IMG/VR virus record: IMGVR_UViG_2519899835_000003
DNA: 64,000 bases
Reading direction: 5' to 3' (one strand)
DNA from: a virus
Taxonomy: Duplodnaviria > Heunggongvirae > Uroviricota > Caudoviricetes
Shown in pieces: positions 2,408 through 2,521 of the stretch (positions within the stretch are counted from its first letter, which is position 1; every line of letters starts with the position of its first letter). Made by a program: the position numbers and the translations under genes. The notes beneath the pieces were generated by a model that did not search any database, had not been told where the DNA came from, and saw only the letters and a list, made by a program, of their open reading frames with translations.

Positions 2408-2521
2408 ATGACCACACAATATGGATTTTTTATCGATTCCAGCCGCTGTACTGGCTGTAAAACCTGCGAACTGGCGTGCAAAGATTTTAAAGTTGGTTAC
2501 GTATCGTTTAAAATCAATTAG
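2408..2521 (+). pseudogene. ynfG: ynfG (DmsB-like Fe-S subunit) truncated after codon 28 by prophage insertion
   Basis: ORF begins MTTQYGFFIDSSRCTGCKTCELACKDFK as in YnfG, then diverges (VGYVSFKIN, stop); host homology ends near 2492. Confidence 0.85.

Follow-up and report, generated by a model that had tools for sequence, protein, structure and literature searches.

The ynfG-phage junction

The DNA analysed here, called the window throughout, is a stretch of 64,000 nucleotides from the virus record IMGVR_UViG_2519899835_000003. It begins with ynfF and the start of ynfG and continues, to its last base, as prophage. The genes ynfEFGH-dmsD form an operon. Its product YnfG passes electrons between YnfE/F and YnfH and is believed to leave the cytoplasm along with YnfE (PMC5203670). 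The main features are as follows.

1..2397 (+): ynfF, encoding a DmsA-like molybdoenzyme subunit; open frame, 798 of 807 codons in the window
2408..2492 (+): 5' ynfG fragment, codons 1-28 plus one base, 100% identical to intact ynfG
2486..2492: core (overlap) TTTAAAG, 7 bp, defined by aligning attB with the two junctions and by the ends of the POCJ13 record, which abut it
2493..64000: prophage body, Sepvirinae-like, ~99% identical to the NCCP15648 prophage and syntenic with POCJ13

The ynfG frame runs into phage DNA as a hybrid ORF (ynfG'::phage, 2408..2521, +) whose translation is MTTQYGFFIDSSRCTGCKTCELACKDFK followed by VGYVSFKIN and a stop. Twenty-eight codons match YnfG and the next nine are unrelated and phage-derived, exactly the count given by the initial annotation and now borne out by both translation and alignment. 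We aligned three DNA sequences across the break: intact ynfG of C600, the window, and the int-'ynfG junction of the Korean isolate NCCP15648 (NZ_CP009050.1). The window is 100% identical to C600 ynfG through base 2492 and shows no recognisable identity beyond it, so that comparison with an uninterrupted gene, proposed as a check in the initial annotation, locates the break at that base. The NCCP15648 junction is unrelated to ynfG before TTTAAAG and identical to it afterwards. This strain is ~99% identical to the window from ynfF onward, and its TTTAAAG is the matching core that had been anticipated at the far junction beyond int. Upstream, ynfF is intact, as had been stated, as far as the window shows: its frame is open over 1..2397, and in NCCP15648 the gene is annotated as intact, with a start 27 nt (9 codons) upstream of the window start. 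The junction here and the reciprocal junction in relatives support the placement of a prophage inside ynfG, splitting the ynfEFGH-dmsD operon.

Attachment site

TTTAAAG is the only stretch common to attB, attP and both junctions. It covers codons 27 and 28 of ynfG and the first base of codon 29, and 7 bp is the overlap size expected for a tyrosine recombinase. The bacterial site reads ...GTGCAAAGAT-TTTAAAG-ATCTTGGCC... and the reconstructed attP ...GAGCAACAAC-TTTAAAG-TTGGTTACG..., with the attP core lying in a perfect 14-bp palindrome, CAACTTTAAAGTTG. The ends of the POCJ13 record adjoin the core, the int-side end reading ...GGTGAGCAACAA and the opposite end TTGGTTACG..., and the window from 2493 is nearly identical to the reverse-complemented end of that record (one visible mismatch in 260 bases). 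The far, int-proximal junction lies outside the window, ~1.04 kb past its end at ~position 65,03x, an offset taken from NCCP15648.

The phage arm that begins at the core carries the following features.

2493..2688: int-distal attP arm, specific to ynfG-integrating phages by its matches to POCJ13 and 75/02 and by genome counts
2566-2579 and 2586-2599: 14-bp direct repeat ATGCAAAGCTTTGT, candidate arm-type Int sites in the int-distal arm
2610-2618: TTTGTCCCA, candidate arm-type Int site

Among the matches listed, only POCJ13 and 75/02 align from the first phage base, and the other listed Stx phages, which are of the wrbA type, begin to align at about base 197 of the phage DNA. Two short motifs recur on both sides of the core and are candidate arm-type integrase sites: ATGCAAAG three times, at -69, +80 and +100, and TTTGTCCCA twice, at -95 and +124. 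The int-side candidates fall at 17230-17270 of the NCCP15648 locus and the window-side candidates at 2566-2618, where both window copies of ATGCAAAG lie inside ATGCAAAGCTTTGT, which contains the palindrome CAAAGCTTTG.

Homology to wrbA-type Stx phages starts at ~2680-2689 in the window. Just before ant, 2689-2772 (+) comprises a promoter-like TTGACA-18-CATACT, matching at 10 of 12 positions, and downstream of it two hairpins and a U7 run, which may together form a short leader or sRNA unit conserved among Stx phages and lying beside the variable att arm.

We also considered dmsB as an alternative or secondary target and rejected it. At the homologous position dmsB has TACAAAG, which differs from the core at two of seven bases, and the arm was counted in as many genomes as the ynfG junction (82 each, an equality of counts that does not imply identical sets).

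Integrase and excisionase

The right end of the window holds the recombination genes.

63590..63961 (+): excisionase gene xis, 123 aa; phrog_2907, E=9.7e-44, profile positions 2-117 of 117
63817..64000 (+): 5' end of the tyrosine integrase gene int, 61 of 387 codons in the window, reading towards 'ynfG

All 61 Int codons in the window are identical to those of POCJ13 Int (61/61), and the other 326 lie outside it. The full-length Int of NCCP15648 (387 aa) agrees with POCJ13 Int at 386 of 387 residues and carries the PF00589 catalytic domain (E=1.5e-45), a region that falls beyond the window here. The int DNA is at least 99.4% identical in POCJ13, 75/02, phiSTEC1589-Stx1c (99.7%) and PhiR5_2, and at least 99.5% identical in the last three; the next relatives, at 75-81% DNA identity, are the integrases of E. 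coli temperate phages such as 2G7b and ev243 and of the Salmonella phages epsilon34 and SEN22. The xis gene overlaps the start of int. In RefSeq, just the first 32 xis codons are annotated, as a truncated HTH pseudogene (NCCP15648 locus 15884-15979). PF00589 (in the relative's Int), xis, a short identical overlap and reciprocal junctions (in relatives) together indicate integration of the lambda Int type.

The prophage and its relatives

Judged by its sequence, the element is a short-tailed lambdoid prophage that resembles Stx phages, closest to POCJ13 and 75/02, with an estimated length of ~62.5 kb. Its modules run int, xis, exo/bet/gam, kil, cI/cro/cII, replication, nin, Q and nanS-p, and then lysis, terminase, portal, capsid, tail fibres, lom, a 2,783-aa LPD protein and ea22/ant, which is the order found in short-tailed Stx phages. 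Three genes are referred to below.

2929..3558 (+): antirepressor gene ant, the first phage gene past the junction; phrog_377, E=8e-94, and annotation
25878-28523 (-): tail-fibre gene with collagen-like Gly-X-Y repeats (26311-27209) of periods 54 and 108 bp
55480..56187 (+): CI-like repressor gene; phrog_4 and phrog_6201, annotated as an XRE family regulator

POCJ13 (Diegovirus POCJ13, Sepvirinae), which is Stx1a-converting, shares with the window the gene order from int to ant: int, recombination, immunity, replication, nin, Q, nanS-p, lysis, terminase, head, tail fibres, lom, the large LPD protein and ant. Nucleotide identity between the two is ~84-96% over long aligned blocks. Alignment fails around the cI immunity region and over some stretches of the nin and early regions, such as window 55034-57462 and 47976-51787, and the window prophage differs from POCJ13 in having two c4/ant modules. 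Blocks aligned to phages of the POCJ13 and 75/02 type make up about three quarters of the prophage at ~84-96%, a rough estimate that lies near the genus threshold (ICTV, ~70% nucleotide identity over the full length). In the phage collection, window 2493-22000 is matched best by the Shigella phages 75/02 Stx and POCJ13, and best overall by 75/02 (85% covered at 93.3%).

Among bacterial genomes the prophage of NCCP15648 comes closest. Its ~61 kb of phage DNA ends with the 387-aa integrase gene, and it differs from the window by carrying an IS1 within lom and by having fewer repeats in the tail-fibre array. The tail-fibre product has 881 aa here versus 671 aa in NCCP15648, and repeat number therefore varies between near-identical prophages. 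Over window 16400-30000 the best RefSeq complete genomes are NCCP15648 (98.2% over 86% of the query) and NCCP 13983 (97%), and the ynfG prophages of O104:H4 are ~95% identical. In the O104:H4 and Korean isolates (NCCP15648, FORC_029, FORC_043 and FORC_069) the int-'ynfG junction is 99.8-100% identical and the arm 99.7-100%. The genome collection holds no exact match to the window.

The toxin genes that give Stx phages their name are absent from this copy, as the following positions indicate.

41203-43113 (-): nanS-p, lower border of a 766-bp interval
43582..43600: stx-absence point; by blastn, 43582 corresponds to POCJ13 22168 and 43600 to POCJ13 20673
43879-44412 (-): Q, upper border of the 766-bp interval

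In Stx-converting phages stxAB sits between Q/pR' and nanS-p, whereas the window prophage lacks it despite a full Q-to-nanS-p layout, and no stx ORF occurs in the 766-bp interval. The flanks of POCJ13 20674-22167 (1.49 kb, with stx1A/B at 20901-22127) align to the window, and the segment itself has no counterpart. As the stx1 segment is missing while its flanks align, we regard the prophage as an stx-negative relative of the ynfG-integrating Stx1 phages; 75/02 and phiSTEC1589-Stx1c, by contrast, carry stx1. No tRNA genes were found in the prophage. A full-length match to the sRNA family STnc100 (165 bits) lies downstream of Q at 43335-43540 (-), occupying the interval where Stx phages carry the toxin operon.

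Several other parts of the prophage deserve description. Two modules comprising a P1-like c4 antisense RNA, isrK and an a1b1 target, with ~75% mutual identity, lie at 46682-46880 (-) and 48267-48465 (-), each upstream of an antirepressor-type gene (Ant, 45946-46629, and an ORF6N protein, 47548-48213). Together with ant at 2929-3558 and a KilAC-domain gene at 45149-45877, this brings the antirepressor-type genes to four. The 2,783-aa ORF (8049-16400, -) encodes an LPD38/LPD5 domain protein (phrog_616) with a stretch resembling DarB-like antirestriction proteins, and it is conserved in Stx phages. Accessory cargo is found at 19661-19801 (-), 50180-50504 (-), 48657-49236 (+), 49287-49772 (-) and 38324-38905 (+). 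It includes two Hok-type toxins, one of them (hokD) with a matching sok RNA, a RelE/ParE toxin paired with an HTH protein, a toxin of the Doc family and a gene for an Ais-like LPS core heptose(II)-phosphate phosphatase, which lies between the terminase and lysis modules.

Frequency of the insertion

A census of 5,426 complete E. coli genomes gave the following counts.

Int-distal junction (window type), 601-bp probe across the junction: 82 genomes
Phage arm alone: 82 genomes
Int-'ynfG (int-proximal) junction: 89 genomes
Intact attB, 300-bp probe centred on the site: 5,234 of the 5,326 genomes with a match

The 601-bp probe matched 5,322 genomes, and in all but 82 the match stopped at or before probe position 293, which corresponds to window base 2492. 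Set against the number of intact attB sites, the junction counts mean that nearly all interruptions of the ynfG site involve a POCJ13-type integrase. The site is occupied in ~1.5-1.6% of complete genomes, a figure inflated by repeat sequencing of outbreak isolates. Carriers include the O104:H4 genomes 2011C-3493, C227-11, HUSEC2011, 2009EL-2050 and 2009EL-2071, as listed genomes of 2009-2011. Within single genomes the two junctions lie ~60 kb (2009EL-2071) and ~62.5 kb (FORC_043) apart. The int-'ynfG junction was found in seven more genomes than the int-distal one (89 and 82), which suggests partly deleted or rearranged ynfG prophage remnants, as in the 4.62-Mb strain LZHX12.

Consequences for ynfG, ynfH and dmsD

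The 5' piece of ynfG gives a product of 37 codons that keeps cysteine group I only (C14, C17, C20 and C24) and has a single Pfam Fer4 match at residues 6-25. In NCCP15648 the 3' remnant, 'ynfG, encodes 183 aa from a GTG start located 40 bp past the int stop and is followed by ynfH and dmsD. Its product matches TIGR02951 over positions 25-161 only, at 221.8 bits (cut-off 214.1), compared with positions 1-161 and 264.8 bits for intact YnfG. It thus lacks profile positions 1-24, including the C-x2-C-x2-C-x3-C of group I. Neither fragment covers the full-length four-cluster model of DmsB/YnfG (TIGR02951 including group I). The phage supplies no ferredoxin motif, its contribution at the two junctions being the codons VGYVSFKIN with their stop and (M)VSNNF. 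As neither fragment is a complete YnfG, the gene is inactivated.

PGAP annotates 'ynfG (NCCP15648 locus 17315-17866, and many RefSeq genomes) as an intact 'DMSO/selenate family reductase complex B subunit' or 'ynfG'. The score of 221.8 bits against a cut-off of 214.1 explains why the 183-aa ORF is left unflagged as a pseudogene. Annotation of the truncated gene as intact is a likely source of error in pangenomes and metabolic reconstructions.

For the host, YnfEFGH, a selenate reductase, probably loses its Fe-S subunit and with it electron transfer, although DmsB and DmsC might replace YnfG and YnfH. The initial annotation's view of the reductase as probably non-functional is thus a reasonable one; it mentions neither dmsD behind the insertion nor the direction in which int reads. 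Downstream, ynfH and dmsD would be severed from the FNR-dependent ynfE promoter by ~62.5 kb, with altered expression. DmsD is essential for maturation of DmsABC as well and is encoded only in the ynfEFGH-dmsD operon (PMC12096835), and its position behind the insertion may bring a wider respiratory phenotype. Phage-driven, int-directed transcription of ynfH-dmsD is possible, since int is co-oriented with 'ynfG-ynfH-dmsD and lies 40 bp upstream of 'ynfG with no terminator-like site between them. Promoter scans of the int-'ynfG interval and upstream of dmsD gave counts at or near the shuffle expectation, and the promoter and terminator scans were uninformative overall. At the other junction, ant starts 437 bp past the break and reads in the same direction as ynfEF, with hairpins followed by T-runs in between at 2564-2603 and 2745-2772. 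The insertion leaves ynfG broken in ~1.6% of complete E. coli genomes, the O104:H4 outbreak clone among them, and the YnfEFGH reductase is probably broken with it.

Discussion

We are confident that an stx-less, Stx-phage-like lambdoid prophage has integrated in ynfG by tyrosine-integrase recombination at TTTAAAG and does not rebuild the gene. The crossover lies within the 7-bp TTTAAAG overlap. The window contains the int-distal junction, from ynfG' to phage, and the int-proximal junction would join the int-xis side to 'ynfG-ynfH-dmsD. Beyond base 64000 we expect the end of int and ~50 bp of phage DNA whose last letters are ...GGTGAGCAACAAC, followed by TTTAAAG and ynfG from codon 29 onward (GATCTTGGCCCGGAAG...). 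The far junction and most of int are read here from NCCP15648, which is ~99% identical but a different strain. In the lysogen, ynfH and dmsD would either fall silent or depend on int-directed transcription.

A more far-reaching reading is that integration in ynfG rewires two control circuits rather than merely knocking the gene out, leaving ynfH and dmsD to be transcribed, if at all, from the int/xis side of the phage and placing the ant operon downstream of the anaerobically induced ynfEF. We think this very unlikely. On this reading ynfH and dmsD, the latter encoding the Tat chaperone that DmsABC also needs, would leave FNR control and lysogeny would change both DMSO and selenate respiration, while anaerobiosis could be coupled to antirepressor expression and prophage induction. 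All of this would apply to the entire O104:H4 outbreak lineage.

A related proposal, 'active lysogeny', makes the prophage a reversible switch: excision at TTTAAAG would restore ynfG under some condition, or integration would rewire control. The xis gene is full length and int is intact in the near-identical relative, and excision would be exact because the core is short and identical. The orientations of int towards 'ynfG-ynfH-dmsD (at 40 bp) and of ant with ynfEF (at 437 bp) also fit such a switch. Against it, the hairpin and T-run sites stand between the junction and ant, and the prophage occupies ynfG in the listed O104:H4 genomes as well; we consider a switch very unlikely.

It is more improbable still that integration is silent, either because phage DNA rebuilds ynfG, in the manner of icd or tRNA sites, or because the 183-aa 'ynfG product works. 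In favour, the product passes the TIGR02951 cut-off and escapes a pseudogene call by PGAP, and its GTG start lies just past int with no terminator-like site between. However, the phage adds just six unrelated N-terminal codons to the 3' piece and nine unrelated C-terminal codons to the 5' piece, and the 183-aa product is without profile positions 1-24 and cysteine group I. In four-cluster subunits of the DmsB type, each cysteine group ligates clusters. An intact second ynfG, which would have undercut the initial annotation, does not appear in NCCP15648, where a probe that includes 267 nt of 3' ynfG finds one place. The second place found there by the junction probe lies in phage sequence common to other prophages, and we discarded it as a second intact ynfG.

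Finally, the artefact that the initial annotation had raised against itself is a chimeric ynfG/phage join. Misassembly is a known hazard in genomes rich in prophages, and the window shows one of the two junctions. Such a join can nevertheless be dismissed: the same junction is present in 82 complete genomes and its reciprocal in 89, all independent assemblies, the two lie ~60-63 kb apart in single genomes, the break coincides with the 7-bp core that attP also has, and integration of POCJ13 at this site has been demonstrated by PCR (PMC4193171).

Integration at TTTAAAG in ynfG by an Stx-like phage also agrees with the published record. Gray et al. showed by PCR in 2014 that POC-J13 inserts in S1742 of S. 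flexneri 2457T and in its homologue, ynfG, of E. coli MG1655 (PMC4193171). Phage 75/02 of S. sonnei uses the same ynfG site (PMC5447701), and an stx1a prophage is found at the ynfG site in an Australian isolate. In RM10410, a 62,500-bp Stx1a prophage was placed in 'ynfG (also known as dmsB)' (PMC10562709). Elsewhere 'dmsB' is given as the site of Stx1c or Stx1a prophages, and two papers call it newly identified (PMC10675304, PMC12029490, PMC12113909); phiSTEC1589-Stx1c was reported in 'dmsB', as were Stx1c Diegovirus phages, and ynfG, under one name or the other, is the published site for PhiR5_2 as well. RM10410 carries the same int-distal arm as the window, the int of phiSTEC1589-Stx1c is 99.7% identical, and the true dmsB has a different core, which together argue that the published 'dmsB' site is ynfG. 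The 'dmsB' of the Stx-prophage papers is thus most likely ynfG, and the literature has come to call new, under another name, a site demonstrated as ynfG in 2014. The initial annotation had supposed that integration in ynfG may be uncommon; it is, at ~1.5-1.6% of complete E. coli genomes, yet the event is recurrent and published since 2014, and hence not new.

The prophage in ynfG is therefore an instance of a known pairing of phage and attachment site, with the minor twist that this copy lacks stx. The sharing of an att site by stx-negative relatives and Stx1 phages matters for how the site is occupied and for recombination between prophages of the Stx and non-Stx kinds.

Other Stx phages also enter genes by tyrosine-integrase insertion, 933W in wrbA and 933V/Sp15 in yehV/mlrA. 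Unlike the wrbA and yehV sites, the ynfG target lies in the middle of an operon, upstream of dmsD, a chaperone gene that another enzyme needs. Integration can also restore its target, as with phage 21 and e14 in icd. The target is rebuilt at sites of the icd type, whereas ynfG is not rebuilt by the window prophage.
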